From Spirochaetia bacterium (GTDB lineage: Bacteria; Spirochaetota; Spirochaetia; SZUA-6; Bin103), in assembly GCA_965208575.1 (NCBI GenBank), contig CBDBOV010000004.1, forward strand, positions 416,001 to 480,000: 64,000 nucleotides of DNA. The letters are read 5' to 3'. Under the pieces are notes generated by a model, which was not told the origin of the DNA, made no database searches, and saw nothing but the letters and a program-made list of their open reading frames with translations. Positions 382 to 23,169 of this stretch are shown piece after piece. A program made the position numbers and the translations under genes. Numbering within the stretch: the stretch's first letter is position 1; each line of letters starts with the position of its first letter.

Positions 382-1488
382 CTACTGGTAGGGGTCGGCG
401 GCGTCGCGCAGGCCGTCGCCGAGCAGGTTGAACGCCAGCACGGTGATGATGATGAACACGCCCGGCAGCATGAGCCACGGCGCCAGCGCGATGGTGTGGA
501 TGTTCTGCGCCTCGCCGAGCAGCACGCCCCAGCTCACCACGGGCGGGCGCAGGCCCAGACCAAGGAAGCTGAGCGCCGTCTCGGCCAGGATCATCTCCGG
601 TACGGCCAGGGTCAGCGCCACGATCACGTAGCTCAGGAACGACGGGATCAGGTGCCCGGCGATGATTCTCGTGGCACTGGTGCCGGCCACCCGCGCGGCC
701 ATCACGAAGTCCTCCTCGCGCAGGCTGAGCAGCTTGCTGCGCACCACCCGTGCCAGGCCGGTCCACCCGATCAGCGACAGGATGATGGTGATACCGAAGT
801 ACACCCGCAGCGCCGGCCACTGCGGCGGCAGGGCGGCCGCGAGCGCCATCCACAACGGCAGAACGGGAATGGAACGCAGGAACTCGATGATGCGCTGAAT
901 GAGGTTGTCCGCGGTGCCGCCGAAGTAGCCCGATACGCCGCCGATGCCGAGCCCGAGGACGAAGCTCAGCAGCACCCCGATCAACCCGACCGACAGCGAC
1001 ACCCGCGCCCCGCACACCAGCCGGCTGAACACGTCGCGCCCGATCTGGTCGGTGCCCAGCAGCAGCAGCGTCCCCTCCCGCACCGCAAACAGGTGCACGC
1101 GCGCGGGAATCAACCCCCAGAACCGGTATTCGTCGCCGGGCTCGAACAGGTAGATCGGTCGCCGGGCGCTGAGGTCCTCGCCGTACGACTTGCGCCAAGT
1201 GACCGGATCCTCCACCAGCGTGAAGTCGTATACGAACGGGCGCAGGTGGAAGCGGCCGTCGTGGAAGAAGTGGATCCGCTGCGGCGGCGCCAGCGGCAGC
1301 TCCGAAAAGCGCGTGCGAATGTGGTACGGCGCCACCACCTCGCAGAACACGCCGACCAGGTACATCAGGCCCAGCACCACGCCGCCGGCGATGGCCAGGC
1401 GGTGCTTGCGGAACCGCTGCCACATGAGCTGGTACTGGGAGGCGATGAATGCCTGCTCCGGGTCGACCCGGCGGTGTGCGCGGCTCAT
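382..1488 (-). CDS. ABC transporter permease (DppC/OppC-like)
   Basis: ASQYQLMWQRFRKHRLA, GTDQIGRD, EAA-like loop REEDFVMAAR, C-term GDGLRDAADP; ATGA overlap with upstream permease. Confidence 0.95.
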   Translation of the reverse strand: MSRAHRRVDPEQAFIASQYQLMWQRFRKHRLAIAGGVVLGLMYLVGVFCEVVAPYHIRTRFSELPLAPPQRIHFFHDGRFHLRPFVYDFTLVEDPVTWRKSYGEDLSARRPIYLFEPGDEYRFWGLIPARVHLFAVREGTLLLLGTDQIGRDVFSRLVCGARVSLSVGLIGVLLSFVLGLGIGGVSGYFGGTADNLIQRIIEFLRSIPVLPLWMALAAALPPQWPALRVYFGITIILSLIGWTGLARVVRSKLLSLREEDFVMAARVAGTSATRIIAGHLIPSFLSYVIVALTLAVPEMILAETALSFLGLGLRPPVVSWGVLLGEAQNIHTIALAPWLMLPGVFIIITVLAFNLLGDGLRDAADPYQ

Positions 1489-2474
1489 TGCTCCAACCGA
1501 ATGCGCGGGTCGAGCGCCGCGAGCAGCAGGTCGGAAATGAAGGTTCCCACCACGGTCAGCACGCTCAGCAGCAGGATGAACGCGCCGGCGAGCAGCATGT
1601 CCTGGCTCAGCAGGGCGCGCAGCATCATGGCGCCGGTGGTCGGCAGGCTCAGCACCACCCCGACGATGGGCGCGCCGGATATGATGGTGGCAAGTTGCCA
1701 GCCGATGGTGGCGACGATCGGATTGAGCGCGATGCGCACCGGGTAGCGGAACACCAGGCGCCGTTCCGCCAGCCCCTTGGCGCGGGCGGTCACCACGTAC
1801 TGTTTCTTGAGTTCGTCGAGCAGCATGCCGCGCATGATGCGGATGATCGACGCCGTGCCGGCGGTGCCCAGGACGACCACCGGCACCCACAGGTGGGAAA
1901 GCATGTCCAGCAGCTTGCGCAGACTCCACGGCGCGTCGGCGTACTCGGGCGAGAACAGCCCCCCGACGCTCTGCCCGAACACCTTGAAGCCCATGTACAT
2001 CAGCAGCAGGGCCAGAAAAAAGTTGGGCGTTGCCAGGCCGACGTAGCCGATCACCGTGAACGAGAAATCGAACGGGGAATACTTGTGCAGCGCCGAGTAA
2101 ATCCCGATCGGGATCGCCACCACGTAGGTGAACAGCAGCGAGCCGAGCGCCACTACCAGGGTCCACCCCATGCGCTCCCAGATCAGCTCGCTCACCCCCA
2201 CGTTCCACAGCAGCGAGCGGCCGAAGTCGCCGCGGCTGACGATGCCCCAGATCCACTTCAGGTACTGCACCATGATCGGCTGGTCGAGCCCGAACTGGCG
2301 CCGCAGGCCCTGCAACTCGTACTCGGACACGGTGGAGCCCTGGTTCTCGAGCTGAATGACGTAGGTGGTGAGGTAGTCGCCGGGCGGGAGCTGGATCAGG
2401 ACGAACGCCACCACCGAAACCGCCGCCACGGTGATCAGCAGGTAGAACGAACGCCTGATGAAGTAGGTGAGCAT
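1485..2474 (-). CDS. ABC transporter permease (DppB/OppB-like)
   Basis: LPPGD, GLDQP, GDFGRS, YVVTARAKGL, C-term DPRIR. Confidence 0.95.
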   Translation of the reverse strand: MLTYFIRRSFYLLITVAAVSVVAFVLIQLPPGDYLTTYVIQLENQGSTVSEYELQGLRRQFGLDQPIMVQYLKWIWGIVSRGDFGRSLLWNVGVSELIWERMGWTLVVALGSLLFTYVVAIPIGIYSALHKYSPFDFSFTVIGYVGLATPNFFLALLLMYMGFKVFGQSVGGLFSPEYADAPWSLRKLLDMLSHLWVPVVVLGTAGTASIIRIMRGMLLDELKKQYVVTARAKGLAERRLVFRYPVRIALNPIVATIGWQLATIISGAPIVGVVLSLPTTGAMMLRALLSQDMLLAGAFILLLSVLTVVGTFISDLLLAALDPRIRLEQ

Positions 2475-2542
2475 TACCGCATGGGCCGCCCGCCACGCGG
2501 CAAGCGGCCCATGATCTCAGGTCCCGAGCGGTACGTGCGCGC

Positions 2543-4585
2543 TTACTGGCGGATGAACCACTGCTCGGGGATGGTGTTGTTGAACCAGCGGCCCTCCGGC
2601 CACCACCAGTCCACGTCCGGCACGTTGACCAGGTCGTTGCGCACGATCACCGGGACGGGCGCCTGCGACACGGTGCCGATGCCGTACAGTTGCCGCACCA
2701 TCCTGGAGGAGTACTCGTTGCCGATGGCGGTCGACTCCGGCGTGAACAGCGGCGTCTGCAGGTAGCGGGTGAGCAGCGCGTAGATCTCCTGCACCTCCTG
2801 CGGCGGCACCACGCCGGATGCGCCACCCGACATCCACCAGTCGTCCCACCCGTGGTTGCTGACGTCGCCGGGCCGGAACTGGCCCGCCTCGCGCAGTGCG
2901 AAGCCCACGTCGGTGGTCAGGTGCGCGGGATGATGGGCCACCTGTACCTGGCCGGCGGCGTTGCGGGTCGAGTACAGCCGGTCCTCCTCCACCTTGAGCG
3001 TGATCTGCACGCCGACCGCCTCCCAGTACTCCTTGACCAGTTCGAAGATCGGCTTGCGGTCGCCGCGGTCGTAGTACTCCAGCAGCAGGCTGAGGGTTTC
3101 ACCATCGGGACGGGTGCGCCACTGGCGATTCGCGTCCCAGGCCAACCCGATCTCGTCGAGCAGCGCATTGGCCTGGTCGACGTCGTACTCTGCGAAATGG
3201 GCGGTCATCCACGGCTCGTGGTAGGTGGCCAGCGGCGGCGGCGCCACCTGGCTGGTGACGGCACGCCCGAAGAACACCAAGTCGTTGATCTCGTCGCGGT
3301 TGATGGCCAGCGACATCGCCTGCCGGAAGCGCAGGTCCCGGAACAGGTCGCGCAGCACCGTATCCTCTTCGTAGAGCTGGTTGAAGGCGAACCGCATCTC
3401 GTTCCCCACCGGGGAATTCCACAGCAGCGCCCGGTACCCGCCCTGGTGCTCGTTCTCCTTGTACAGCGTCCAGTTCTTGAGTTGCAGGTGGGCCCGCCCG
3501 GTGTGAAACTCGCCGGCGATGGTCTTCAACTCCGCGACGTCGCGGCTCTCGACCAGAATGCGCGCCATGCTGTCCATGTACGGAAGCTGGCGGCCGGCGG
3601 TGTCGACCTTCCAGTAGTAGGGATTGCGGTGGAAGAAGCGGCTGCCGAATTCATCTTCACGCGCCAGGTCCCAACCCTCGATGGTGGGAAAGTCGAGGTC
3701 GTTGCGGTCGTCCGACTGGCCGGCGAGAATCGCCAGGAAGTGCTGCGTCCAGCCCTCGAAGCCGGCCGCCTTGGCGTTCGCCTCGGCGTCGTCGTTGTAG
3801 TCGGCGTGGAACCGGCTCAGGTAGTGCTTGGGAGTGACCGGGAAGGTCGACCGGCTGCGGGCATAGGGAGAGAATGCGATCTTGTCCACCACGATCGGGT
3901 ACGGCACCGCAAACTGCATACGTACCGTGGTGTCGTTCACCTTGGTCACCGTCATCGGCGTGCCGCCCGGCTTCCAGGCCACGTTGATCGCCTGGCTGAG
4001 ATTCTCGTTGGTGGCGTAGTCCTCCCACCAGAACAGGAAGTCGTCGGCCGTGAACGGCGCGCCGTCGCTCCACTTCATGTTGTTGCGCAGCGTCAGGGTG
4101 AGGGTCTTGAAATCCTCGGTCAGGTCCCAGTCGAGCACCACGTTGGGAATGGTGGCATCGATCTCCGGGCTCACCGTGAGCAGGTTCTGGAAGCGCGTGA
4201 ACATCACTTCGAAGTCGCCGCAGCAGCCGGGCGTGATGGTTGCCGCGCGATACTCGCCGCCGTACACCCCCATCTCGTCGAGCGGGTCGACCACCACCAC
4301 CTCGTCCGGCAGGCGATCTTCGACCGGCGGCAGGTCGCCCGCGGCCACCATCGCGGCCAGCACCGGCGCTTCCGTGAACGCCGGCAGGTTGTTGCCGGTG
4401 TCGGCCTCGAAGGCCGCCTGCGATCCCCACACCACGGTGCGTCCCGGCACCAGCACCTCCAGGTCGGATGCCGCCGCCGTGCCCGCCTGCGAACCGGACT
4501 GCTCCTCGTCACCGGATCCGAACGCGGTGCCGGCTACGAGCAGCGCCAACCCCACCGCCAGTGCGAATCGAACAATCAGTGTCAC
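2543..4585 (-). CDS. ABC transporter substrate-binding protein, family 5
   Basis: GTG start with GGAGG RBS; signal peptide; EAPVL..GDLPPVEDRLP, KWSDGAPFTADD, RNPYYWKVD, FRQAMSLAINR. Confidence 0.93.
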   Translation of the reverse strand: MTLIVRFALAVGLALLVAGTAFGSGDEEQSGSQAGTAAASDLEVLVPGRTVVWGSQAAFEADTGNNLPAFTEAPVLAAMVAAGDLPPVEDRLPDEVVVVDPLDEMGVYGGEYRAATITPGCCGDFEVMFTRFQNLLTVSPEIDATIPNVVLDWDLTEDFKTLTLTLRNNMKWSDGAPFTADDFLFWWEDYATNENLSQAINVAWKPGGTPMTVTKVNDTTVRMQFAVPYPIVVDKIAFSPYARSRSTFPVTPKHYLSRFHADYNDDAEANAKAAGFEGWTQHFLAILAGQSDDRNDLDFPTIEGWDLAREDEFGSRFFHRNPYYWKVDTAGRQLPYMDSMARILVESRDVAELKTIAGEFHTGRAHLQLKNWTLYKENEHQGGYRALLWNSPVGNEMRFAFNQLYEEDTVLRDLFRDLRFRQAMSLAINRDEINDLVFFGRAVTSQVAPPPLATYHEPWMTAHFAEYDVDQANALLDEIGLAWDANRQWRTRPDGETLSLLLEYYDRGDRKPIFELVKEYWEAVGVQITLKVEEDRLYSTRNAAGQVQVAHHPAHLTTDVGFALREAGQFRPGDVSNHGWDDWWMSGGASGVVPPQEVQEIYALLTRYLQTPLFTPESTAIGNEYSSRMVRQLYGIGTVSQAPVPVIVRNDLVNVPDVDWWWPEGRWFNNTIPEQWFIRQ

Positions 4586-4842
4586 CTTTGTACCTCCAGG
4601 AGCGACGCACGTGTGGCGCATCACGATGACCGACGCCACGTCCGTCCACTGTTGTCCGCGATGGTAGAGGCCACCCGGGCAGCGGTCAAGCCGGCTGACC
4701 GGAACGGCCGAAGCTGAGCCGAGCCACCTGGGCTCCGTCGCCGCAGCGGCCCGGGGCCGCGCATCCCACCGGGACACACAGCCACGACTGACTGACGACA
4801 CGCGCGCAGGTGTGACCCCATTTTGTGGATAGTAGGAAGACG

Positions 4843-5082: not shown

Positions 5083-6006
5083 CTACTCTACCACCTTTCG
5101 GCGGGGACCGTAAGGTCCCCTCGGACCCGGCTTCGGCGTCCGGGCGTCGATCAACTCGACCACTTCGCGCGCCGTCCACCGCTGCCGCGCCACGCCGGCC
5201 GCCATCGCCGGCGTGGTGCCCGTGCCCCACTTCTTCTTCAGGCTCATGTGCGGCCGGCAGAAATTGTAGGCCATCGACCACATGGCGAAGCTGTGCACAT
5301 GGTTCTCCAGCTTCTTGGAGAAGGCGTTGGTCAGCCGCGTGAACCGCCGCTGTGACATGCGGATGGTCAGGTTCTGCCGCTCCGCGTAACTCGTGCTGAT
5401 CAGGTCCAGGTTCGGCGCGCCCTGCACGATGATCCGCTCCACCCCGTTGCACTCGCCGGGGCTGTACCGCCGGTGCGCGGCGGTGGCTTCCTCGCCGTCG
5501 CCCTTCGAGGTGCCGTAGTGCTTCACCAGCATGGCATAGTCCACGTCCCCCGCGAATGCCGCGTCCACGGCCTCCAGGTACGCCGAGTGCCCGTCCGTGG
5601 TGAGCTGCACCCGGTTCCGTAGCCGCTGCTCCAGGTCGATCATGAACGGGATCGCCGTCTGCGCCGAGCGATCGCCGACGATCCATGACGCCAGCAGCTT
5701 CGTGTGCGCGCACAGCGCCGTCCACGTCCACACGTCTCCGGCACCCCGCGGCGGGTTCTTCGCCCGCTCCACGTTCTTGTTCTTCGCGTAGATGAACGAC
5801 CAGATTTCGTCGATCTCCAAGCGGGAGCACGGCAGGTTGCGCAGCACCTCGTCCTGGTACTCTGCGCAGATCGGGCCGGCGTCTCTGATGAACTTCCCTA
5901 CCGTGTGCTTCGCGCAGCCGACGATACGCATGGTGGCGGCCATGCTGTTCCCCTCGACCAGGAGCTGGTACATAAGTGCCCTGCGTTCGATAGGTAACTT
6001 GTTCAT
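5083..6006 (-). CDS. IS1-family-like DDE transposase
   Basis: N-terminal HTH (LVEGNSM), DEIWSF, TTDGH.AY, STSYAERQNLTIRM..RRFTRLTNAFSKK, TPAMAAG, KPGPRGPY. Confidence 0.88.
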   Translation of the reverse strand: MNKLPIERRALMYQLLVEGNSMAATMRIVGCAKHTVGKFIRDAGPICAEYQDEVLRNLPCSRLEIDEIWSFIYAKNKNVERAKNPPRGAGDVWTWTALCAHTKLLASWIVGDRSAQTAIPFMIDLEQRLRNRVQLTTDGHSAYLEAVDAAFAGDVDYAMLVKHYGTSKGDGEEATAAHRRYSPGECNGVERIIVQGAPNLDLISTSYAERQNLTIRMSQRRFTRLTNAFSKKLENHVHSFAMWSMAYNFCRPHMSLKKKWGTGTTPAMAAGVARQRWTAREVVELIDARTPKPGPRGPYGPRRKVVE

Positions 6007-6419
6007 CGTGAATGAAATATACTACTTCATATGGTGTTGCGCAAGCGAAATATCAATGTTTCAATGGAAAGGGCCGCCGGGGATGTGGTATCCTCGCCGG
6101 CGGCCCTGCTCGTGAATCATGGGGGTGGATTGGTTCGCCAGCGGGCTCCAAACTCAGCCTAGCCTGACCTTCCTACTTATCCCGTTGATTTGACCGCGGG
6201 ATTCTCTGGTTCATCCAGATAAGTTGTTACCATGAAACAAGATAGGTTCACGGAAGTGGACTCTCCTCTTGAGAGGATCAGTGTATACACTGAATATATC
6301 GAGCGCCGTGCCGGACAGCTTCCTCAATACTACTCGAAGTATCCCCTCTTCGATCCTTCCGACCCACTCATGCCGGTTCTCCTTGACTGTCTCCGTACTA
6401 AGTGTATACACTGATTGCA

Positions 6420-8016
6420 GTGGCCACCCTCCAGAAAAAGGTCTCCCGCGGGCACACCTACTGGCAGATCGTCGAGTCCAGACGCGTCAACGGCAAACCA
6501 CGTCCCATCGTCCTCGAACATCTCGGCAGCGCAGAGAAGTTGCTCCAGCGCCTCCGTGAGGCTCCCACCCGACCGGCAAAGGCGAAGGTCATTCAGTTCG
6601 GTGCGTTGGCCGCGCTCTGGCAGATCGCCCAAGAGTTGGATGTGGTGGGCCTTATCGATACCCAGGTCCCCAAGCGAGACCAAGGACTGTCCTGCGGACA
6701 GTATCTGCTGGTGGCGGCGCTGAACCGTTGTGTGGCCGCCTCCAGCAAGGCTTCTCTGTACCAGTGGTATCGACGCACGGTGTTGAATCGGCTGCTCCCC
6801 GCTGCACAGCGCTCGCTCGCCAGTCAGCGATTCTGGGATCACATGAACATGCTCGACAGCGCTGCCATCGGCGCGATTGAGCAACAACTGGCGCAGCGGG
6901 TGATCGACCACTACCGGATCGATCTGCGACCGCTCATCTTCGATGCGACCAACTTCGATACGTTCATCGACAGTCGCACCGTCAGTGCACTGGCACAACG
7001 TGGCCACGCGAAAAGCAAACGCGCCGATCTGCGGATCCTGGGCTTGGCACTCCTGGTAAGCTGCGACTACCACATTCCGCTGCTCTCACACCCGTATCCG
7101 GGAAATCAGAATGACGCCGCGATGTTCTCGAGCTTGATCGAGACGCTGATCAGCCGCTGCAAGCAGTTGGCCCAGGACTGCGAAGATGTCACGCTGGTGT
7201 TCGATGGCGGCAACACCTCGAGAGCGAATATCGAGGCGCTGCAAGCCGGCCCATACCATTTCGTCACCTCCTTGACCGTGACTAAGCACGAGGATCTGCT
7301 GGCGGTTCCCGCCGGCAGGTTTCACTCCTTCACTGACCCACGGCTGGCCGGGGTGACCGCTTACCGCAGCGACAAGGTGATCTGGGGTGAGCGCCGCACC
7401 GTGGTGGTCACCAACAGTCGCCGGTTGCTGGACGGGCAGCTGGCTGGGATCAAACCAGCGCTTGCAACGCCGGCGCTTGGGCAAACGCATCCTGTGCACC
7501 GACAACGAGTCGTGCAGAGCGCGAATCCGACGGCGTGCCAGTTTTCGATTTCGCACCGATTGGGCAGCGTACCAGCGCTTGCAACGCCGGCGCTTGGGCA
7601 AACGCATCCTGTGCACCGACAACGAGTCGTGGAGCGACCAGGAGATCATCTTGGCCAGCCGCGCTCAACATCACGTGGAGCGGGCGTTCAAGCAGATGAA
7701 GAATCCCCACTGGGTGAGCTTCTCGCCGACCTTCCACTGGACCGATCAGAAGCTGCGCGTACACGTGTTCTATTGTGTGTTGGCACTGCTGCTGAGTTCG
7801 CTGCTGCAACGCAAGGCGGCCGACGGCGGACAACTCCTTACCATCGAGCAACTACTGACGGAACTCAGCGGCGTGACCGAAGTGGTCAACCTCTACGCCG
7901 CGCCTGAGCCGGCCACCAGAGGGCGCTACCGGGCTCAATACGTGCTCTCTGAACGGTCGTCCCTGCAAGACAAACTGTGCCGCCTACTTGACGTATACCG
8001 ACACGCCCATCCCTGA
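6420..8016 (+). pseudogene. IS1634-family transposase, frameshifted with internal rearrangement
   Basis: YWQIVESRRVNGKPR, FDATNF, RGHAKSKRADL, VFDGG; C-term VERAFKQMK..FHWTDQKLRVHVFYCVLA lies in another frame (ORF ending 8016). Confidence 0.88.
7454..7631. repeat. 61-bp exact direct duplication inside the transposase
   Basis: ACCAGCGCTT...GAGTCGTG at 7454-7514 and 7571-7631. Confidence 0.95.
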
Positions 8017-8179
8017 CAGCACCACGGTCAGTGTATACAAGCCCCGTCCGACAGGATAGCGAGTAACTTGCTATCCTAAAATGACTTATCCACTCAAACT
8101 ACCAGCCACCCGAAATAACTAGGAAACTCACGCTAGCCGGGGTTCGATTCCCCGCACCTCCACTACATCACTGATGCCG

Positions 8180-8392
8180 TTATGGTGTACGCGCGGCGCG
8201 CGCCTTCTGCGCGATCTCCCGGCGCCGCTCCGGGGTCAGGGCGCGTGCCCGCGCGCGTGCCGCCTTCGTCTGTTGGGACGGGCGCGGCGGGTTCAGGATT
8301 TCGTCCTTGTCATTGGGCAGTTCGCCGGTGGCTATACGCCCGATCAAAGTGGCCCTCTCTGCAGGGTCTTTCGGCCTCCGGTGGATGGCCAT
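8180..8392 (-). CDS. Small basic protein (70 aa) of the kind often found beside this IS1-like transposase class
   Basis: AGGAGGT RBS; RRPKDP..A..I..IATGE and ARA..LTPERRREIAQKA. Confidence 0.8.
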   Translation of the reverse strand: MAIHRRPKDPAERATLIGRIATGELPNDKDEILNPPRPSQQTKAARARARALTPERRREIAQKARAARTP

Positions 8393-9101: not shown

Positions 9102-10134
9102 ACACGGCCTGTATGGGATGCTCACGGTGGTGCGCGCCTACTACGCCAGCAGCACGGGTCGGGGGCTGGCGCCGCTGGATGAACGGCTGGGGATCGGGCA
9201 CGGGCACACGCCGGCGTGTGAGTACCATGTGGCGCGGTTCGTCGGCGACAATCCCTACCAGAGGAGCCGGGAACATTTTTGTCAGATCTTCCGCCCCGAC
9301 GGCACCGAAGAGATCTCACTGCACAAGATCGAACAGATGGTCGATGGGCTTGGGGTGCGGCTGGAGCACGAACGTCAGGAGGAGATCACGGCTCAGTTCG
9401 AGGACGGCAAGCGCATAGCGGTCGCCGATGAGATCACCGGCACGATGGTGGTGTGCATCGATGCAGGGAAGGCGCCAACGAAGGGCAACGAACGTATAGA
9501 TGACGACAAGAGAAAGAGATACGACCGTGAGTTCCGAGACGTCAAGGTGGCGAGCGTGTCGGCGTTGGAGTGGGATGAGGTAAATCAGGAGGCACGCTGC
9601 AGCGACAGTTCCTACGTGCTGGGCATCGAGCATGCCGATCAGTTTTTTCAGCGTATCTGGGTGGAGATGAACCGGCGCAGCCGCGATCTGAGCTCGCTAC
9701 GTTTGGTGTTCATCGGCGACGGGGCTGACTGGATCTGGCGCCGTGTGGGAGACCTGGACCACGAGCGCAGTCGCCACATCCTGGACTTCTGTCACGCCGC
9801 CGATCACCTCGCGGATGTGTGCAAGATCGTCGACGGAGAGGGCAGTGATCGCTTCTATGAACGCTTCCAACGCTGGCGCGGCATCCTCCGCGAGGGCGGG
9901 GCCTCCGAGCTGATCGTCGAGCTGAAGCAGTTGCGCGACACCGCCGACAGCGGCAAGGCGCGCGATTACGTCGTCGCGGCCCGCATGAAGCAGAGCGGCA
10001 TGACCTGGACCCTGGCGGGAGCACAGCACATGCTTCAGATCCGTGCATCTCTCATGAGCTCGCGGTTTGCACGCGACTTCCAGCACTCACTTCCAGCACG
10101 TCCCGAGATTGAGGAGCTGCCGGCTGCCGCCTGA
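9102..10134 (+). pseudogene. ISKra4/UPF0236-like transposase, 5'-truncated and internally deleted
   Basis: IGDGADWIW, LDFCHAADHL, RMKQSGMTW; the segment normally carrying GSG.xE before RMK is absent. Confidence 0.8.
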
Positions 10135-10491: not shown

Positions 10492-12288
10492 ATGAACCAT
10501 ATGACAAAGACCTGCGCCGTTGCGCTGGTCCTGGGCCTTGTGCTGACCGCAACCGGCCTGTGGGCCGCGGCCGCAGAGGAGGAGCCGGCCGCGGCGATGG
10601 AGAAGGAAATGGTGCTCGATCCCACCACCGGCGAGATGGTGGAGGCGCCACGGTACGGCGGCACGTTGACCTACGCCGAGCGGATCGAGCCGCCGGGTAC
10701 CGACCCCTTCGACCAGGGCGGCGCGCCACGGGGCGTCGATAGCGTTTTGGAGAAGCTCTCCATCGGCAACTGGGGCATAGGCAGGGACGAATTTGCCTTC
10801 TCCACCAGGTACGTGCCGCTGTGGGCCATGAAACCCAACTTGGCGGAGAGCTGGGAAACGCCTGACCCCACCACGATCGTCATCAACATCCGCCCGGGCG
10901 TTCGCTGGCACAACAAGGCACCGATGAACGGTCGGGAGCTGACCGCCCAGGATGTCGAATTCAACTTTCACCGCTATACGGGTCTGGGCAGCGGCTTCAC
11001 GGAACCGAGCCAATTCAACTCGATGAATGCCGCGACCTGGGAATCGATTACGGCCACCGACGATGCCACGGTGGTGTTCAAGCTGAAGGTGCCTCGCAGC
11101 GACGGGCTGGAGGTCATCGTCACCCACTGGTTCCATTTCATTCTGCCTCCCGAGGTAATCAAGCAGCATGGCAACATCCACGATTGGAGGAACCTGGTCG
11201 GCACCGGGCCCTACATGCTGACGGACTGGGTCAAGGGCAGCTCCCTGACCTATACCAGGAACCCGGACTACCGGGGCACCGACGAGAAATACCCACAGAA
11301 CCGGTTGCCCTACATCGACGAGTTACGACGCGTGGTCATGCCCGAACAAGCAACCTGGCTGGCGGCACTGCGCTCGGGCAAGCATGACATTACCGGCTTG
11401 TTCGGCGACACGCAATTGGGCGATGTCAACCAGGTAGAGAGCCTCCAACAGAGCAACCCCGAGATCACGTTGCACCCGTGGTACTTTCGCTCGGAGACCT
11501 CCGTTCTTTTCAACCTGCGCAACCAGCCGCCATTCGACGACATCCGGGTGCGCAAAGCCATGCAGATGGCCATCGACCTGGAGACCGTCAACAACACCTA
11601 CTACAAGGGTCTTGCCAAGTGGCAACCCCAGGGGATTATCGGCGACAGTCTGAAGGGGTACCATGTCCCCTTCGAAGAGTGGCCCGAAGCCGTGAAGCAG
11701 GGCTACCGGTATGATCCGGAAGGGGCGGAAAAGCTTCTGGATGAGGCGGGGTATCCGCGCGGCGCGGATGACGTTCGATTCAAGACCTTCCTGCACCACT
11801 TGCAGCGATTGGACGTCGGCTATCAGGAAATAGCCGTCCAATACTGGGCGCAGATTGGCGTCGACGTGGAGATTCAGCAACATGACAACACTCCGCATGC
11901 GGCGCTGAAGAGGGAAGGCAATTATGAAGGGATGGCGTCTTCGGTGCTCGGCGTCGACCAGGCGCCCCTCCCGATGATGGGATGGATTCACTCGAGAAGA
12001 CCGGACGCGAACTCCGGCGGACATCAGGACCCGGTGATGGACGCCAAGGCGGAAGCCGCCGAAACCGCTGCCAGCGCCGAGGATCAGCAGAGGCTGGTTG
12101 GCGAGGCAGATATGTACTTTGTCGCGCAGCATTACAACCTGTGGGGTCCCAAGGTTCCGTTGTTCAATGCAACCCAGCCATGGGTCAAGGGCTATAACGG
12201 CGAAGTCGAGCTGGGACTGGCTCGCGCAATTGCCATCCTGGCCCGCATCTGGATCGATAGTGATCTGAAGCAAGAGATGGGCGGCTAG
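10492..12288 (+). CDS. ABC transporter substrate-binding protein, family 5
   Basis: AAGGAG RBS, signal peptide, PRYGGTL, LAESWE, GTGPY, PFDDIRVRKAM. Confidence 0.95.
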   Translation: MNHMTKTCAVALVLGLVLTATGLWAAAAEEEPAAAMEKEMVLDPTTGEMVEAPRYGGTLTYAERIEPPGTDPFDQGGAPRGVDSVLEKLSIGNWGIGRDEFAFSTRYVPLWAMKPNLAESWETPDPTTIVINIRPGVRWHNKAPMNGRELTAQDVEFNFHRYTGLGSGFTEPSQFNSMNAATWESITATDDATVVFKLKVPRSDGLEVIVTHWFHFILPPEVIKQHGNIHDWRNLVGTGPYMLTDWVKGSSLTYTRNPDYRGTDEKYPQNRLPYIDELRRVVMPEQATWLAALRSGKHDITGLFGDTQLGDVNQVESLQQSNPEITLHPWYFRSETSVLFNLRNQPPFDDIRVRKAMQMAIDLETVNNTYYKGLAKWQPQGIIGDSLKGYHVPFEEWPEAVKQGYRYDPEGAEKLLDEAGYPRGADDVRFKTFLHHLQRLDVGYQEIAVQYWAQIGVDVEIQQHDNTPHAALKREGNYEGMASSVLGVDQAPLPMMGWIHSRRPDANSGGHQDPVMDAKAEAAETAASAEDQQRLVGEADMYFVAQHYNLWGPKVPLFNATQPWVKGYNGEVELGLARAIAILARIWIDSDLKQEMGG

Positions 12289-12360
12289 CGCCCCCGCTGA
12301 CCTCCGTGCACAGGGGCTGGGATGTTGCATTCGGAGCGCCGCTTCAGAGCGCGCTCCCAG

Positions 12361-12392
12361 CCCTCACTCATTGCATCCCTCACTCATTGCAT
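12361..12392. repeat. 16-bp tandem duplication in the SBP-permease spacer
   Basis: CCCTCACTCATTGCAT twice. Confidence 0.9.
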
Positions 12393-12403
12393 AAGGTGTC
12401 CCA

Positions 12404-13363
12404 GTGAGAGCCTATATCATCAGGCGCTTGTTGCTGGTCATCCCCACCCTGTTTCTCCTGAGCATCATCGTCTTTCTCACCGTGCGCTTCATCCCCGGCG
12501 ACGTCGTAGACGCCATGTTGAGCGAGATGCAATGGGAGGGTGGCGGAGATCTGGACCGTGCAGCGCTTGAGCATCGGCTGGGATTGGACGTGCCGGTCTG
12601 GATGCAGTATGGACGCTGGATCGGCGACATGTTCCGGCACGGCAGCCTCGGCCGATCACTGTGGCGCGACTTGCCGGTAGAGGAGGAGATACTCTCCCGG
12701 TTGCCGGTCACCATCGAGCTTGGCCTCCTGGCCATCTTCATCGGGCTCGTGATCGCGCTGCCGGTGGGCATCTACTCGGCGGTGCGCCAGGATACCGCCG
12801 CCGACTACCTGGGACGCTCGGTCGCCATCATCGGCCTGGCCACGCCGAACTTCTGGCTGGCCATCATGGTGTTGATCTATCCGACCATCTGGTGGGGCTG
12901 GACCCCGCCGCTGGAATACGTTCCGTTCGCCGAACACCCGCTGGACAATCTCGCGGGGTTCTTCATCCCCAGCCTGATCCTGGGGACGGCGATGGCCGCC
13001 GCCACCATGCGGATGACGCGCACCATGACGCTGGAGGTGCTGCGGCAGGACTACATCCGTACCGCCTGGTCCAAGGGGATGGCGGAGCGGGTGGTGATTG
13101 TGCGGCACACCCTCAAGAATGCCCTCATCCCGGTGGTGACCCTCGTCGGCCTGCAGATGCCGATCCTGGTCGGGGGTGCGGTGATCATGGAGAACATCTT
13201 CGCCCTGCCGGGACTCGGTCGCCTCATGCTCGATGCCCTGCAAAGCCGTGACTACCCGGTGGTGCAGGGAACCAACCTGTTCTTCGCCACCGGGGTGGTG
13301 CTGCTCAATCTCCTCATCGACCTGATCTATCCCTACCTGGACCCGAGGGTACGGTATGAGTAG
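12404..13363 (+). CDS. ABC transporter permease (DppB-like)
   Basis: IPGD, QDYIRTAWSKG, RDYPVVQG, LDPRVR. Confidence 0.95.
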   Translation: MRAYIIRRLLLVIPTLFLLSIIVFLTVRFIPGDVVDAMLSEMQWEGGGDLDRAALEHRLGLDVPVWMQYGRWIGDMFRHGSLGRSLWRDLPVEEEILSRLPVTIELGLLAIFIGLVIALPVGIYSAVRQDTAADYLGRSVAIIGLATPNFWLAIMVLIYPTIWWGWTPPLEYVPFAEHPLDNLAGFFIPSLILGTAMAAATMRMTRTMTLEVLRQDYIRTAWSKGMAERVVIVRHTLKNALIPVVTLVGLQMPILVGGAVIMENIFALPGLGRLMLDALQSRDYPVVQGTNLFFATGVVLLNLLIDLIYPYLDPRVRYE

Positions 13364-14366
13364 GAACAGGGATGCGCAGACAGCACCCGCCGGTCAGCTT
13401 GTTCGGACCGGTGAATCCAGGTGGCGGGGCTGGCTGGCTGATTTCTTGATCAGGCTGTGGCAGGAGAAGCCCCTGGGGACCGCCTGCGGGATTCTCGTCG
13501 TGATCCTGATTCTCGTCGCGATGCTTGCCGAGCGTCTGGCGCCCTACCCCTACCAGGAAATACACCTGCCGGACATCATGCAGGGCGCATCCGCCCGCTA
13601 TCTGCTGGGGACCGACCACCTGGGGCGAGACCTGTTGAGCCGCATCCTCCATGGAGCTCGCATCTCCTTGACCGTCGGTCTGGCGGCAACGGCACTGAAT
13701 GCGTTGGTCGCCGTGCTGATCGGCGGGATTTCCGGGTTCCTTGGCGGAAGAGTGGACTTGGCGGTACAGCGTTTTGTCGATGCCTGGATGGCCTTCCCGG
13801 GGCTGCTGCTGTTGTTGACCATCATGTCGATCGTGGGACAGGGGTTGCTGCAGATCATCGTGGTGCTGGGGATCGCCGGCGGCATCGGCGGCTCCCGCGT
13901 CATCCGCAGCGCCGTGATCGGGGTCAAGGAGAACGACTACTTTCAGGCCGCCCGGGCCGTGGGCACGCGCACCAGCCGGATCCTGGTGCGGCACGTGGTG
14001 CCCAACATCATGGCGCCGATCATCATCATCTTCTCGATCAACATCGGCGGCGTGATCATTGCCGAGGCCAGCTTGAGCTTCCTGGGATTCGGGCTGCCGG
14101 TCCAGGTTCCGAGCTGGGGAGGGATGCTCAGCCGCGAGGGACGCCAGTACATGGAGCAGGCGCCCCGGCTGGCGCTGTGGCCCGGGCTCTGCCTGACGAT
14201 CGTCGTCTATGCGCTCAACATGTTCGGCGACGCGGTCCGCGACCTGCTCGACCCCCGGCTGCGCGGCGGCCAGGGAAGTTACGGCACCTCGGGTAACCGC
14301 CAGCGAGGCCTCCTGCGGCGTGGCGGTCACGCTGCTTCCGCATCGCCACGGGACTCGCGCGTTTGA
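13356..14366 (+). CDS. ABC transporter permease (DppC-like)
   Basis: LGTDHLGRD, EASLSFLGFG, PSWGGML, GDAVRDLLDPR. Confidence 0.95.
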   Translation: MSRNRDAQTAPAGQLVRTGESRWRGWLADFLIRLWQEKPLGTACGILVVILILVAMLAERLAPYPYQEIHLPDIMQGASARYLLGTDHLGRDLLSRILHGARISLTVGLAATALNALVAVLIGGISGFLGGRVDLAVQRFVDAWMAFPGLLLLLTIMSIVGQGLLQIIVVLGIAGGIGGSRVIRSAVIGVKENDYFQAARAVGTRTSRILVRHVVPNIMAPIIIIFSINIGGVIIAEASLSFLGFGLPVQVPSWGGMLSREGRQYMEQAPRLALWPGLCLTIVVYALNMFGDAVRDLLDPRLRGGQGSYGTSGNRQRGLLRRGGHAASASPRDSRV

Positions 14367-14491
14367 TCCCGGCAGCCCGAGCGCGACGGCACCCTGGCCG
14401 CTACCGAGGCGCGCGGACTGGCGTTCATCCCCTGGAGTCCCTGGAGCGCCACCCCTGGCCGGAGGAGAGCGACGCACAGCCACGGCGACGT

Positions 14492-14521
14492 TTGACGCGC
14501 GGGCGCGGGCCACGATAGGTT
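14492..14521 (+). promoter_or_regulatory. Putative promoter conserved in front of both paralogous SBP genes
   Basis: TTGACG-18-TAGGTT here and TTGACG-18-TAGGGT at 21015-21044; both followed by a CAAGGAGGAA RBS. Confidence 0.55.
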
Positions 14522-14550
14522 GTGCGACGTTCCCAACAAGGAGGAAGTCG

Positions 14551-16569
14551 ATGAAAGTGATATCGCGGCTCGTACCGGCCGCCCTGATCGCCGGCTTGGC
14601 GGCGTCTGCCGCGTTCGCCGGCGGGGATGGCGAAGGCGAGGTACAGATGTCCGCGCCGGCGGCCGAGATGATGGCCGAGTACGGCGACGTGTGGCAGTGG
14701 GACACCGTGCAGGAGTACGAGGCCGACACCGGCAACAAGATCACCCAGTTCGGCGAGGCGCCGATGCTGGCGGCGATGGTGGCGGCCGGAGATCTGCCCC
14801 CGGTGGAGGAACGGCTCCCCGACGAACCGCTGGTATTCAACGTGTTCGAGGGCATCGGCACCTACGGCGGCACCCTCAAGGCGGCCTCGATCGGTACCGA
14901 GTACACCGAACTGACGCCGATCCGCGGGTTGGCCGGCGCCGTGCAGACCGCCAACCGCGGTCCGGGAAACCCGATCGACATCGTGCCCTATGCCCACAAG
15001 GGCTGGGAGATGTCGGAGGACCAGAAGACGGTCACCATGTACCTGCGGCGCGGCATGAAGTGGTCCGACGGCCACCCCTACACCGCCGACGACGTGATGT
15101 TCTCGTTCGAGGACTTCATACTCATCGACGAGTTCCCGTCCGGCTGGCATCGCAGCGGCTGGGGGCCGATGTCGCACGCCGAGAAGGTGGACGACTTCAC
15201 GGTACGGCTGCACTACACCGATCCGTTTCCGACGCTGCCGGGCTGGTACGAGTTCTGGGGCGGCTGGCAGCCTCACTCCTATCCCAAGCACTACCTCTCC
15301 AAGTACCATGCCAAGTACAACGACAACGCCGACGCCCTGGCCAAGGAGGAAGGCTACGACAACTGGGTGCAGGCGGTGTGGGCGAAACAGGCCAGCACCA
15401 GCGACTTTCGGGTGGAGGACCTGAACACCCCGAGCGTCAATCCCTGGAACCACGAGGAGATCACCACCACCTACGTGCTCCACGTGCGCAATCCCTATCA
15501 CTTCGCGATCGACCCGGCCGGCAACCAGCTCCCCTACATCGACCGCCTGCGCGTGGAGACGGTAGCCGACGCCGAGACCCTCAACCTGAAGGTGATCTCC
15601 GGCGAGCTGTCGGTGGCCGCCATCGGACTGTCCACTCCCGACTTCCCGCTGTTCAAGGAGAACGAGGAAGCGGGCGACTACGAGACGCTGATGTGGCCGC
15701 GCGCCGCGGGGGCGGAGAGCTTCTATGCCTTCAACCTCACGCACCAGGACCCGGTGCAGCGCGAGATTTTCCAGGACGTGCGCTTCCGGCAGGCGATGTC
15801 GCTGGCGATCGACCGCGAGGAGATCAACAAGGTGCTGTTCTTCGGGCTGGCGGTTCCGCGGCAGGCGGCGATGGACCCGGAGAACTCCTTCTACAAGGAG
15901 GAGTGGGCAACCCGCTACGCGGAGTACGACCCCGACACCGCCAACCGGCTGCTCGACGAAATGGGACTTGAGCGCGGTGGCGACGGTTTCCGCCTGCGCC
16001 CCGACGGCGAGGTGCTGACGGCCCAGATAGTGATCCCGCTGGAGTGGCCGAGTCACGTGGCGGTCAGCGAGCTGGTGGCCGAGTACTGGGGGGACGTGGG
16101 CGTCAAGGTGGACCCGCGCTCGTACAGCATCGACCTGGTAGTGGAGCGGCTGACCACCAACGACTATGACGTTTCCGTGTGGTTCCTGCGCCGCACCAAC
16201 GCGAGCAAGGGCTATCTGCCGTCCAACAAGTTCACCTCCAACGACGGCTGGTACGCGACCCAGTGGTGGGCCTGGCACCACTCCGGAGGCGAGCAGGGCG
16301 AGGAGCCGCCGCCGGAGTTCCAGGAGTACTTCAAGCTGGCCGACCGGTGGTACATCACGGCCGACAAGGCCGAACGCGACCGCATTGCCACGCAGGTGTT
16401 CGACTTCGCCTCCGAGCAGGTGCTGCTGATCGGCACGGTCGGCTATGCCCCGGTGCCGGTCGTAGTGAGCAACCACTTGGGCAACTTTCCGCGTGACGTT
16501 CGGTTCGCCGGCGACGACGCGCATTCCCTCCGCGACGTCAAGCCCGACCAGTGGTACATCAAGCAGTAA
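14551..16569 (+). CDS. ABC substrate-binding protein, family 5 (paralog A)
   Basis: AAGGAGG RBS; EAPML..LPPVEERLP; near-identical to 21073-23094. Confidence 0.95.
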   Translation: MKVISRLVPAALIAGLAASAAFAGGDGEGEVQMSAPAAEMMAEYGDVWQWDTVQEYEADTGNKITQFGEAPMLAAMVAAGDLPPVEERLPDEPLVFNVFEGIGTYGGTLKAASIGTEYTELTPIRGLAGAVQTANRGPGNPIDIVPYAHKGWEMSEDQKTVTMYLRRGMKWSDGHPYTADDVMFSFEDFILIDEFPSGWHRSGWGPMSHAEKVDDFTVRLHYTDPFPTLPGWYEFWGGWQPHSYPKHYLSKYHAKYNDNADALAKEEGYDNWVQAVWAKQASTSDFRVEDLNTPSVNPWNHEEITTTYVLHVRNPYHFAIDPAGNQLPYIDRLRVETVADAETLNLKVISGELSVAAIGLSTPDFPLFKENEEAGDYETLMWPRAAGAESFYAFNLTHQDPVQREIFQDVRFRQAMSLAIDREEINKVLFFGLAVPRQAAMDPENSFYKEEWATRYAEYDPDTANRLLDEMGLERGGDGFRLRPDGEVLTAQIVIPLEWPSHVAVSELVAEYWGDVGVKVDPRSYSIDLVVERLTTNDYDVSVWFLRRTNASKGYLPSNKFTSNDGWYATQWWAWHHSGGEQGEEPPPEFQEYFKLADRWYITADKAERDRIATQVFDFASEQVLLIGTVGYAPVPVVVSNHLGNFPRDVRFAGDDAHSLRDVKPDQWYIKQ

Positions 16570-16574
16570 AATCC

Positions 16575-17708
16575 TCAATGATAAGGGTCGGCAGCATCCC
16601 GCAGCCCATCGCCCATGAAATTGAACAGCAGCACCGTCACCACCACAAACAGACCAGGTATCAACAGCCAGGGATGAAGGGCAACGGCGCGGAAGTTCTG
16701 CGCCTGGCTCAGCAGGACTCCCCAGCTCACTACCGGAGGTCTCAAGCCCACGCCGATGAAGCTCAGCGCCGTCTCCCCAAGGATCATGCTCGGAACCGCA
16801 AGGGTTAGGCTGACGATCAGGTAGCTCATGAATCCCGGCAACAGATGCCGGGTGATGATACGCCGCTCTTTGGCACCAGATATCCGCGCCGCAAGCACGT
16901 AGTCCTCCTCCCGTAGCTGGATGATCTTGCTGCGAACCACCCGCGCGAGCTCGGTCCAACTGACGATGGAGAGAATGACGGTCACGAGGAAGTACAACCG
17001 CACCGGCGGGAAGCGCGGGGGCACGGCCGTGGCGAGGGCCATCCACAGCGGAATCTGCGGCAGCGACTGCAGGAACTCGATGAGGCGCTGGATGAGCAGA
17101 TCCACCGTTCCGCCGAAGAACCCGGAGACTCCTCCAAGAATGGCACCGATCACAAAGCTCAGCGCCACTCCCACGAGTCCCACCGAAAGCGACACCCTGG
17201 CGCCGGCGAGAATACGGGAGTACACGTCACGACCGAGGTGATCTGCACCGAACAGGTACAGCTTGCCCGGCTCATCCACACCGAAGAGGCGCGTGCGAGC
17301 AGGGAACAAACCCAGCAGCTTGTATTCCTCCTCCCCGCGGACGAAGAGGCGAATGGGATAGACTTGAGACTCGTTTATCTCGAACAATTTGCGCAGCGTC
17401 TCAGGATCCCTGCCGGGCACAAGCCCATAGACAAAGGGCCGGACAAGCCTGCCGTCGTGAAAGATCCTGACCCGTGTCGGCGGTGCAAAAACATGATCCG
17501 AGCTGCGCTGAAAGGTGCCCCAGACGGAGAAGAAACCGGCAAATGCAGCGCCGAGATAGAGCACAGCGAGTCCGGTAAGCCCCACCAGAGCGAGCTTATG
17601 CTTGAAGAACTTCCGCCTCATCAGCGTCCAGCTGGACGCCGCGTAGAGTTTCTCCTGCTCAGCAGTTTCCTGCCTCCCGGCGGCGATGATCTGATCCGAT
17701 GTGCTCAC
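16575..17708 (-). CDS. ABC transporter permease (DppC-like)
   Basis: GADHLGRD, REEDYVLAAR, GDGLRDAADP. Confidence 0.95.
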   Translation of the reverse strand: MSTSDQIIAAGRQETAEQEKLYAASSWTLMRRKFFKHKLALVGLTGLAVLYLGAAFAGFFSVWGTFQRSSDHVFAPPTRVRIFHDGRLVRPFVYGLVPGRDPETLRKLFEINESQVYPIRLFVRGEEEYKLLGLFPARTRLFGVDEPGKLYLFGADHLGRDVYSRILAGARVSLSVGLVGVALSFVIGAILGGVSGFFGGTVDLLIQRLIEFLQSLPQIPLWMALATAVPPRFPPVRLYFLVTVILSIVSWTELARVVRSKIIQLREEDYVLAARISGAKERRIITRHLLPGFMSYLIVSLTLAVPSMILGETALSFIGVGLRPPVVSWGVLLSQAQNFRAVALHPWLLIPGLFVVVTVLLFNFMGDGLRDAADPYH

Positions 17709-18712: not shown

Positions 18713-18839
18713 ATCAGCTTTGTTGCCGGCGTGCGCGGCGCAGGGACGGTGGGACTCTGGACACCAATGGGCCCGCGTCAGCGGCTGCGTACTATCCGTA
18801 CGCAGCCGCTGACGCAAGCTTGGGCGCCCGACGCTTGCG

Positions 18840-20876: not shown

Positions 20877-21072
20877 AGATCCTTTCCCTCATAAAGATTT
20901 GCCTGGAATTGATAGTTCGGCGCCAAAGGCGCCTTCTCGCCCTATGTAATATATACTGCACGCTGACGTCAACGCGCTCCTGTGCGTGCAGCGCCAACTC
21001 ATGCGTGCGTTACGTTGACGCCACAGCGGTCTGCGCGATAGGGTTGCGCAACGATTCTCAGCAAGGAGGAAT

Positions 21073-23094: not shown

Positions 23095-23110
23095 TTCAGG
23101 CGATCGTCGC

Positions 23111-23142
23111 TGCAGGAGGCCCGCTCGCGCGGGCCTCCTGCA
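23111..23142 (+). terminator. 14-bp GC hairpin after the SBP gene (attenuator or mRNA-stabilising stem)
   Basis: TGCAGGAGGCCCGC-TCGC-GCGGGCCTCCTGCA; no U-tract. Confidence 0.6.
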
Positions 23143-23169
23143 TATAGGGGATAGGAGCTAACCGCACGG

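Follow-up and report, generated by a model that had tools for sequence, protein, structure and literature searches.

Irregular transfer RNAs (tRNAs) of mismatched identity, as well as transfer-messenger RNA (tmRNA) genes reduced to their tRNA-like domain (TLD), are already known. According to Mukai et al. (2017), the first group includes G3:U70 allo-tRNAs, found in Acidobacteria and in soil metagenomes near toxin-antitoxin or transposon-related genes, and tRNAs with an 8/4 or 9/3 acceptor/T-stem split inserted alanine in E. coli (PMC5389517); these and related irregular suppressor-type tRNAs have been reviewed (PMC7609411). TLD-only tmRNA genes occur in mycobacteriophage DS6A, in jakobid mitochondria and as ~65-bp plastid forms, and these reports mention the DS6A gene together with a similar molecule that strongly inhibits tmRNA, perhaps by titrating SmpB (PMC4131195, PMC11915505). 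A tRNA-Trp(CCA) whose anticodon stem has 4 bp has also been found to read UGA (PMC13092985). The present analysis concerns a gene that resembles all of these, located in a 64,000-nt stretch of a Spirochaetia bacterium (assembly GCA_965208575.1, contig CBDBOV010000004.1, positions 416,001 to 480,000), hereafter the window. In this stretch, two short sequences separated by an insertion sequence (IS) are the remains of one compact plus-strand tRNA-like gene, dead here, which lies in the spacer between a short open reading frame (sORF) and the transposase gene of an IS1-family element (Table 1).

The transposase of the interrupting element belongs to the IS1634 family (NCBIfam NF033559, 154.8 bits for a cut-off of 100). 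The 80-nt left end of this element was detected at 11 places in the genome, as was its right end, corresponding to ca. ten copies. CTAG opens 10 of the 11 left ends and closes 10 of the 11 right ends, and the sole exception has TTAG on both sides, which identifies the 4-mer as the target duplication. In the window, CTAG is duplicated at 6159-6162 and 8133-8136, and once the IS is removed together with one CTAG, 6121-6162 and 8137-8162 form a continuous sequence of 68 nt, with the insertion point in the variable loop of the tRNA-like gene. An earlier note, drawn from the letters of this DNA alone, had rebuilt the same 68-nt sequence, and every structural detail that it listed was borne out. A genome of the same family (G018) has an uninterrupted copy that runs colinearly through the junction, with 61 of 68 columns identical (90.3% over 72 nt) and exactly one 4-mer at the position of the window CTAG, which confirms the reconstruction. 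This copy and a second intact one (G001, same family) were found by BLAST with the left flank combined with a protein search with the transposase, and not with the loop pattern. They agree with the idea, put forward in that note, of a real tRNA-like gene hidden by an insertion, and comparison leaves little doubt that a conserved RNA gene has been broken by the IS. Contigs from four runs of one sample span both IS junctions and none in these runs joins 6162 to 8137 as an empty site would, bearing in mind that contigs drop rare variants. The tRNA-like gene is interrupted in what was sequenced, and inactivated here whatever its function.

The interrupting copy is itself internally rearranged. It contains a 64-nt direct repeat (7454-7517 and 7571-7634), and its transposase frame is split into two open reading frames (ORFs; 6402-7907 and 7387-8016). 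At 7453-7521 it has 67 letters in place of which the other genomic copies and contigs of the four runs have 170 different ones, and the anomaly at 7453-7634 reflects either a rearrangement peculiar to this copy or the misassembly of a collapsed repeat. The 15 nt on the left side of the insertion point (6150-6164) are alike at 13 positions to the IS right end plus duplication (8124-8138); because no similar resemblance is found in the flanks of the other ten copies, this is taken as a coincidence and not as a target preference beyond CTAG.

Once rejoined, the sequence displays several canonical tRNA features, namely a 7-bp acceptor stem with its discriminator, a 5-bp T stem with a T loop of the TTCRAnY type, and an anticodon arm with a 5-bp stem and a 7-nt loop containing U33 and a purine at 37. 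The anticodon stem, bulged in the window, is unbulged in the G018 and G001 copies. Of the canonical U8 and D arm (3-4 bp stem, G18G19), the 13-nt D region of the window and G018 forms retains a GG, with neither U8 nor a convincing stem; a D stem of 4-5 bp occurs in the G001 copy and a canonical one in L060, a more distant member described below. The bases following A73 are CTA and not CCA, which is no objection to a tRNA since the host tRNA genes likewise encode no CCA.

The form made of a 7/5 split, a short variable loop, a poor D stem, an Ala acceptor and a CCA anticodon is not above threshold in Rfam 15, nor was it found in the literature covered, subscription journals and the supplements of PMC5389517 lying outside that coverage. 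As in allo-tRNAs, intact members of the family have a 12-bp acceptor/T helix (7/5, or 8/4 in G001), together with a normal anticodon arm and a 5-nt variable loop; the likeness extends to an anticodon-blind identity (through G3:U70 in some allo-tRNAs), a mismatched anticodon and the occasional grouping of irregular tRNAs in polycistrons. Allo-tRNAs differ in that their split is 8/4 or 9/3, their variable arm long and their D arm Sec-like, whereas the window and G018 forms are 7/5, the window having a 5-nt variable loop and no D stem, and the G001 copy, although 8/4 according to ARAGORN, has a short variable loop. A CCA anticodon and a repeated link to IS1/IS1595 do not appear in the passages of PMC5389517 that were covered, its supplements, which may list similar sequences, lying outside them, and no publication was found on IS1595 and tRNA-like genes, nor was the transposase link found in print. 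TLD-only tmRNA genes (~65 nt) share with the window gene an Ala-type acceptor, a T arm, a stemless D-loop analogue and the absence of a tag frame, and that of DS6A is also borne by a mobile element; the window family differs by its anticodon-type arm and 5-nt variable loop. The junctions TCGAC and GGAC, which we take from our reading of the sequences to be the defining feature of TLD-only genes, occur in 19 of 73 viral sequences (see below) and not in this family. No mRNA-like domain, resume codon, tag ORF or pseudoknot is present in the 68 nt. The UGA-reading tRNA-Trp variants also combine a CCA anticodon with an altered body, but they keep Trp identity whereas the window gene has G3:U70 and A73, without G73. 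Finally, mascRNA (RF01684) and the D-armless mitochondrial tRNA-Ser, of eukaryotic or organellar origin, also adopt a compact tRNA-like fold in which the D arm is reduced; there is no sign of homology, and mascRNA is a processing by-product and no decoder.

The host possesses a standard tmRNA gene (G000:C4:152941-153291, minus strand; Rfam 133 bits), whose acceptor strands and T loop are identical to those of the rejoined gene, the resemblance being confined to these parts. That the halves might simply duplicate a host tmRNA or tRNA as an attachment (att) fragment had been raised in the earlier note; this idea was rejected, as the genome contains no further copy and, outside the locus, matches the sequence over 23 nt at most (91%), at the tmRNA 3' end. 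ARAGORN reported 0 tmRNA genes in the whole genome despite the standard one detected by Rfam.

In silico scans explain how such a gene escapes annotation only in part by its interruption. ARAGORN at default made no call in the window, as the earlier note had predicted, but it also made none in the rejoined sequence (at default or ps90) or in the intact G018 copy (default), so the split is not the sole reason. A ps80 call on the rejoined sequence, with an odd 4-base anticodon and beside two obvious false tRNAs, was given no weight. The G001 copy is called tRNA-Trp(cca) with an 8/4 acceptor/T split. The Rfam scan of the window yielded no match at gathering, and the Rfam scores given for the window form are those of the intact G018 copy, a 90%-identical stand-in for the rejoined window sequence; its best match is mascRNA, with 39.5 bits against 42.5. 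Across the wider family, the gathering threshold of the Rfam tRNA model (RF00005) is passed by L060 (65.3 bits) and by L092, L099, L212 and L215, which are borderline (29-33 bits), and it is not passed by G018, G001, L063, L068, L072, L077, L081, L205, L206, L208, L209 and L214.

The wider family was collected by a pattern scan of 185,579 species genomes in which the CTCCAAA loop, the T loop and the CCTCCA end were fixed, yielding 46 loci, of which 8 compact members (65-72 nt) were left after filtering; the GGGGG 5' strand was not forced by the pattern. The filtering removed tmRNA 3' ends called by ARAGORN (L065, L070, L083, L088, L100 and L104, as well as L089, of similar appearance); tRNA-Trp genes of the ordinary kind in which CCA is encoded (L075, L080 and L087, with L085 and L098 looking alike); L062, identical in sequence to the G001 copy; L067 and L069, in which CTCCAAA falls outside a closed 7-nt loop; L064, L066, L071, L082 and L091, whose acceptor is poor or of another kind; L084, where a tRNA-Trp with A3:U70 belongs to a 24-tRNA array; and the remaining non-member loci, which have no tRNA-like 5' half. 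The record titles of the eight members read Acidimicrobiales, Acidimicrobiaceae, Acidobacteria/Acidobacteriota, Latescibacterota, Gemmatimonadaceae, Chloroflexi and Poriferihabitaceae, that is six phyla besides that of the window, bringing the family to at least seven phyla-level groups. Its forms range from the canonical 72-nt tRNA of L060, which has the same acceptor and anticodon combination and lies 143 nt from an IS1595 transposase gene, to the stemless D region of the window and G018; judged from these sequences, the D arm is dispensable in the family. L068 and L072 adjoin ordinary tRNA genes. A covariance model built from 10 intact members and run on 92 genomes of the order placed only the G018 (77.1 bits) and G001 (67.4 bits) copies above ordinary tRNAs (at most 48.8 bits), and the strict pattern was found in 2 of these 92 genomes.

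Covariation was examined on 11 sequences (the eight cross-phylum members plus window, G018 and G001). Pairs were counted on loop-anchored segments, because MAFFT alignments put some rows out of register, and each sequence could have one bulge, placed where pairing was highest. Pairing holds in 75 of 77 cells of the acceptor stem, whose pairs 6 and 7 show compensatory changes, in 53 of 55 of the T stem, and in 51 of 55 of the anticodon stem, with compensatory changes in all five pairs; none of 2000 shuffles did as well for the latter, a contrast somewhat inflated because the shuffles were denied the bulge freedom. Position 3:70 is G:U in 11 of 11 sequences and never A:U, and A73 accompanies it in all of them, completing the tRNA-Ala identity set. 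Since the opposite strand would give a C-A mismatch, the constant G:U implies that the plus-strand RNA is the one selected, and it points to selection on Ala identity as well. In G001, acceptor pairs 6 and 7 and the anticodon stem are changed on both strands with pairing kept, while G3:U70, A73 and the CTCCAAA loop are identical in window, G018 and G001 despite their differing stems. The homologues thus retain precisely the elements that the earlier note had singled out, on stems that covary.

Its association with a transposon, also proposed there, is well supported, and the surroundings of the gene make a link to mobile elements very likely. The window and G001 share only the block formed by transposase, hairpin, tRNA-like gene and sORF, their flanks not being syntenic, and between the stop codon of the transposase gene and the start of the sORF their nucleotide identity is 74%. 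Related loci of this transposase family mostly have the sORF upstream of the transposase gene on the same strand, and it is on this ground that the tRNA-like gene is described as lying antisense in the sORF-transposase spacer. Transposase homologues found beside the intact copies are 83% (G001) and 56% (G018) identical to that of the window, and the sORF adjoins in these loci too. Upstream of the transposase paralogue in the window genome itself (C6) there is no tRNA-like gene. Among the cross-phylum members, three of eight (L060, L081 and L099) lie 143-215 nt from an IS1595-family transposase gene, recognised by Pfam DDE_Tnp_IS1595 and its zinc ribbon, against none of 37 control loci (non-members of the same genome scan) with an IS1595 or IS1 transposase nearby. 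A metagenome scan in which acceptor, window-like D region and T arm were fixed and the loop left free gave 13 loci, three of which are one locus. Nine of the 13 (7 of 11 when the triplicate is counted once) have a transposase gene 72-779 nt away, eight being IS1595-type and the ninth, L214, having a transposase of the window type (49.5% identity). Orientation and side of the tRNA-like gene relative to the transposase vary, the commonest geometry being the 3' end of the former facing the 3' end of the latter (10 of 15).

No convincing terminal inverted repeats were detected, either for the IS1-family block or for the IS1595 elements. In L099, a 28-nt inverted repeat (79% complementary; 3508-3535 and 4066-4093) brackets a module composed of sORF, tRNA-like gene and hairpin, and homology to another IS1595 copy of the same genome begins at its right arm, so that this module seems flanked by IS ends on both sides.

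Other irregular tRNAs accompany transposases of the same two families. In L056 (1230-1315, minus strand, in genome G017), an 86-nt class-II tRNA with a long variable arm, A73 and anticodon UGG (Pro) lies antisense between sORF and IS1-family transposase gene, with a hairpin near its 5' end. The presence of a different irregular tRNA in the same slot supports regarding the window gene as transposon-borne. L212 (226-321, plus strand) contains a 96-nt class-II tRNA with A73 and anticodon CCC (Gly), adjoining an IS1595-family transposase gene and standing beside a compact Ala-acceptor gene. The two class-II tRNAs have near-identical acceptor and D arms, score 58.1 (L056) and 57 bits (L212) with the Rfam tRNA model, and are possible Leu-type missense tRNAs. 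The compact neighbour in L212 has the loop CTTCAAA (anticodon UCA), which is also found in L215, and in L214 (492-638, minus strand) a tandem pair located 165-245 nt upstream of the window-type IS1-family transposase gene consists of a compact Ala-acceptor gene with the loop CTACCCA and of a 74-nt class-I tRNA-Ser (GCU) with an odd T loop. Read from sequence, class-II A73 tRNAs with Pro and Gly anticodons next to an opal-reading Ala acceptor bear the signature of missense and suppressor tRNAs. In-frame stops were found in none of the 12 adjacent transposase spans, and the idea that such tRNAs serve stop readthrough in their own transposase gene was dropped. Pfam detected nothing above cut-off in the cargo ORFs L056:663-1154 and L058:1577-1762.

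The compact UCA gene (L212:92-158 and L215:2029-2095) is 67 nt long and 97.5% identical between the two loci, both metagenome contigs, while identity of the adjacent IS1595 transposase genes is no more than 78%; the L215 copy is called tRNA-SeC by ARAGORN.

Viral contigs (IMG/VR), scanned with the anticodon left free, returned 73 distinct compact Ala-acceptor sequences, none with CTCCAAA; among them are compact tRNA-Ala(UGC), and the loop of some contains CTA or TTA; an IS1/IS1595-type transposase occurs at only 4 of 96 viral loci. Nineteen of the 73 are mini-TLD-like, 61-65 nt long, with an Ala acceptor, a short closing hairpin and no tag frame. These viral mini-TLDs, which resemble the TLD-only gene of DS6A, were found in L107, L111-L113, L115, L116, L119-L124, L133, L138, L173, L175 and others, with one sequence recurring in nine loci.

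Taken as a whole, the data somewhat favour a mobile, alanine-charged tRNA of the missense or suppressor type, inactivated here, with decoding as the weakest link. In this scheme an intact copy would be transcribed, its 5' end trimmed by RNase P and its CCA added enzymatically as for host tRNAs. Alanyl-tRNA synthetase (AlaRS), whose identity elements are G3:U70 and A73, would then charge it through these, and the CCA anticodon would be used on the ribosome to insert alanine at UGG or at the near-cognate UGA. Ala and Leu-type identities are both read without the anticodon, so that swapping the anticodon on such a body would produce a missense or suppressor tRNA. Charging of the intact copy with alanine is probable from its acceptor, and decoding on the ribosome is rated a little below even. 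That it may also read UGA is proposed by analogy with body-altered tRNA-Trp(CCA), of which the D-arm suppressor of Hirsh is reportedly an example. Among the four functions listed in the earlier note (missense tRNA, tmRNA-like mini domain, anticodon-nuclease decoy, landing pad), the missense tRNA is favoured because a canonical member, L060, exists and because the sister loci carry tRNAs of anticodon-blind type; support for a landing pad came only from other genomes (L063 and L077). More tentatively, and with rather less confidence than for decoding, IS1 and IS1595 elements of many phyla may travel with irregular tRNAs of their own, of anticodon-blind identity (Ala by G3:U70, or Leu-type class II with A73) and with mismatched anticodons (CCA, UCA, CCC and UGG), either as recoding or mistranslation cargo or as an RNA cofactor of DDE transposons; the window would then hold one such gene knocked out by another IS.

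Several observations weigh against this interpretation. Between window and G018, identity is 90% for the tRNA-like gene against 56% for the transposases, and between window and G001 it is 71% against 83%; such opposite trends indicate that gene and transposase have different histories. A second IS copy in G018 has no tRNA-like gene, and the tRNA-like gene of G018 is located beyond the sORF, which does not fit simple co-inheritance; by these comparisons the gene behaves like an exchangeable cassette. In L099 and L060, the inferred IS ends lie 137-165 nt from it. The window and G018 forms have neither U8 nor a D stem, and to our knowledge no bacterial tRNA without a D stem is known to decode. 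The minimum free energy of the rejoined fold (-29.4 kcal/mol, z = -1.37) is reached by 52 of 500 shuffles, so that stability alone gives no support beyond chance, which comparative evidence does. Apart from the ARAGORN call on G001, the G018 and G001 copies remain below threshold with ARAGORN and with the Rfam tRNA, tRNA-Sec and tmRNA models. Outside the three IS1-linked copies, conservation of the loop is circular, since CTCCAAA and CCTCCA were fixed in the pattern, and relatives found with a free loop have varied loops, some without U33 (GGATGGA in L206; also L208), which fits a hairpin with no decoding role. Finally, the adjacent transposase genes offer no in-frame stop to be suppressed, a decoder placing alanine at tryptophan codons is expected to do harm, and it is not apparent how the element would gain from it.

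One rival is a TLD-only mimic of tmRNA that would bind SmpB and/or EF-Tu, alanylated or not, and disturb or hijack host trans-translation for the mobile element, as has been proposed for the TLD-only gene of DS6A. The identity of acceptor strands and T loop with the host tmRNA, the varied hairpin loops of window-like relatives and the D region TTGGTTCG, similar to the D-loop analogue without a stem that tmRNA and the 19 phage mini-TLDs possess, all agree with this, and a precedent of a TLD-only gene (DS6A) and of tmRNA inhibition by a similar molecule is provided by PMC4131195 and PMC11915505. The tmRNA model (RF00023) is also the best match of its Rfam clan on the G018 copy (26.5 bits, E 3.7e-9), but this is far below the gathering threshold of 47 and is obtained with 328 model positions deleted. 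Moreover, the subfamily with the CCA anticodon has the lower half of a tRNA (5-bp stem, 7-nt loop with U33 and A37, 5-nt variable loop), whereas in phage mini-TLDs the TCGAC and GGAC junctions immediately enclose a hairpin; a canonical tRNA (L060) and a copy with a genuine D stem (G001) belong to the family, and the non-Ala irregular tRNAs of the sister loci would be left unexplained, which makes such a mimic unlikely, though still a serious rival. The same holds, with similar probability, for an RNA or DNA element that serves the IS as a tRNA-shaped RNase P processing signal, as a strong convergent transcription unit that blocks read-through from sORF into transposase gene or regulates it in antisense, or as a preferred insertion target of IS1/IS1595 transposases. 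It would account for the proximity to IS1595/IS1 transposases (9 of 13 metagenome and 3 of 8 genome loci, 0 of 37 controls), for the frequent facing of 3' ends, for the antisense position beside a hairpin between sORF and transposase in window, G001 and L056, and for the IS-end-like repeats of L099; in L099, L060 and G018 the gene falls outside the inferred minimal IS, as a target would, and the top Rfam match, mascRNA, is itself a tRNA-like product of 3'-end processing. Neither processing nor targeting, however, needs the strict Ala identity set, the position and orientation relative to the transposase are inconstant, and L068, L072 and L092 have no transposase nearby and lie in tRNA or ribosomal-protein contexts; the repeats that would settle whether the gene is inside or outside the element could not be defined.

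An attachment site for integrative elements, or a decoy for anticodon nucleases, appears very improbable. Tyrosine integrase genes do adjoin the tRNA-like gene in L063 and L077, as they do at ordinary tRNA and tmRNA genes, but none stands beside the window, G001 and G018 copies, the ORFs tested there corresponding to transposases, to the sORF and to genes of ABC transporters, and a whole gene is present, not a 3' fragment. The Trp-type loop kept in the three IS1-linked copies would suit a decoy; a decoy would have no need of an Ala acceptor, and no nuclease gene was seen in the loci examined. Scarcely credible, finally, is a tRNA or tmRNA pseudogene in decay, functionless even when intact. The shrunken D arm, the bulged anticodon stem, the sub-threshold scores, the rarity of the gene (3 of 92 genomes of the order, including the broken copy) and the tolerated disruption would suit it, but not the compensatory changes in all three stems, the G:U at 3:70 in every sequence, the loop kept across copies whose transposases are only 56% identical, nor members in at least seven phyla-level groups. 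The mobile missense or suppressor-type tRNA remains the preferred explanation.

Natural tRNAs whose identity contradicts their anticodon are rare and provide raw material for genetic-code change and regulated mistranslation. Should the preferred explanation hold, plain insertion sequences, and not only phages, would move decoding RNAs between genomes, and a small set of candidates becomes testable: Ala at UGG, Ala at UGA, and Leu-type at Pro and Gly codons. Should its action be instead on trans-translation or on the transposon, IS1/IS1595 would have in this RNA their first described non-coding RNA partner within the literature covered. Such genes go unannotated, falling under the ARAGORN and Rfam thresholds, and their repeated linkage with IS1/IS1595 is the part most worth following.

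Table 1. Coordinates of the tRNA-like gene, of the element that splits it and of neighbouring features in the window
Feature	Position	Strand	Remarks
IS1-family transposase gene	5083-6006	-	307 aa; start 115 nt from tRNA-like 5' end; divergent from tRNA-like gene
G+C-rich hairpin	6070-6107		arms 6070-6083 / 6094-6107; 13 nt upstream of tRNA-like 5' end
tRNA-like gene, 5' part	6121-6162	+	acceptor 5' strand, D region, anticodon arm, 4 variable-loop nt
Acceptor stem	6121-6127 / 8155-8161	+	7 bp with G3:U70; rejoined sequence
D region	6128-6140	+	13 nt, without U8; contains GG, no convincing stem
Anticodon stem	6141-6145 / 6153-6158	+	5 pairs and bulged A6156; rejoined sequence
Anticodon loop	6146-6152	+	CTCCAAA; U33 and purine 37 present
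Variable loop	6159-6162 + 8137	+	5 nt; first 4 nt are the left CTAG copy
IS1634-family insertion sequence	6163-8132	+	splits tRNA-like gene; NCBIfam, multicopy ends, CTAG duplication
tRNA-like gene, 3' part	8137-8162	+	last variable-loop base, T arm, acceptor 3' strand, A73
T arm	8138-8154	+	perfect, loop TTCGATT; weak tmRNA-model match over 8137-8154
Discriminator A73	8162	+	rejoined sequence
sORF	8180-8392	-	conserved, 70 aa; stop codon 17 nt from A73; convergent with tRNA-like gene
ISKra4-like transposase fragment	9118-10134	+	103 bits against a cut-off of 205

The hairpin preceding the gene has 14-nt arms that are 93% complementary, and its loop contains the letters TG-G-TATCCT (6086-6094), both as described in the earlier note. 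The extended -10 promoter that these letters had suggested found no support: a promoter scan of 5900-6250 detected 0 sigma-70-like sites, and neither the G001 nor the G018 copy has the motif. A hairpin occurs at the equivalent place in G018, L081, L099 and L056, and further upstream in G001; it may correspond to a pre-tRNA leader or to a terminator of the minus-strand sORF transcript. Runs of T that follow the stem on the minus strand in G001 and on the plus strand in L056 had suggested an intrinsic terminator, which the scans did not bear out (0 terminators), the loops exceeding the limit of the scanner.

Regarding the neighbouring genes, NCBI gives the name IS1 family transposase to several relatives that are 57-60% identical to the window transposase; the window protein itself scores 23.7 bits with PF03400 (cut-off 24.1) and 53.5 with NF033558 (cut-off 100), and PF03400 is present in most homologues at ~60% identity. 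The sORF has 22 homologues, none named and none with a Pfam domain, and its own product gave no Pfam or NCBIfam match and only a weak PHROG match. The locus forms a nest of three IS families among oligopeptide-type ABC transporter operons, with at least five sets of SBP_bac_5 and permease genes (Opp/Dpp-type ABC transporter) around it (382-4801 and 10492-24171).

Two further loci met in the genome scan deserve mention. In L063 (2340-4956), the tRNA-like gene adjoining a tyrosine integrase gene is located between two Cas6-like ORFs (Cas6 C-terminal and Cas6_I-A N-terminal). The array of L084 (2732-5217), on a contig titled Gemmataceae, comprises 24 tRNA genes in 2.5 kb, including the tRNA-Trp with the A3:U70 acceptor.

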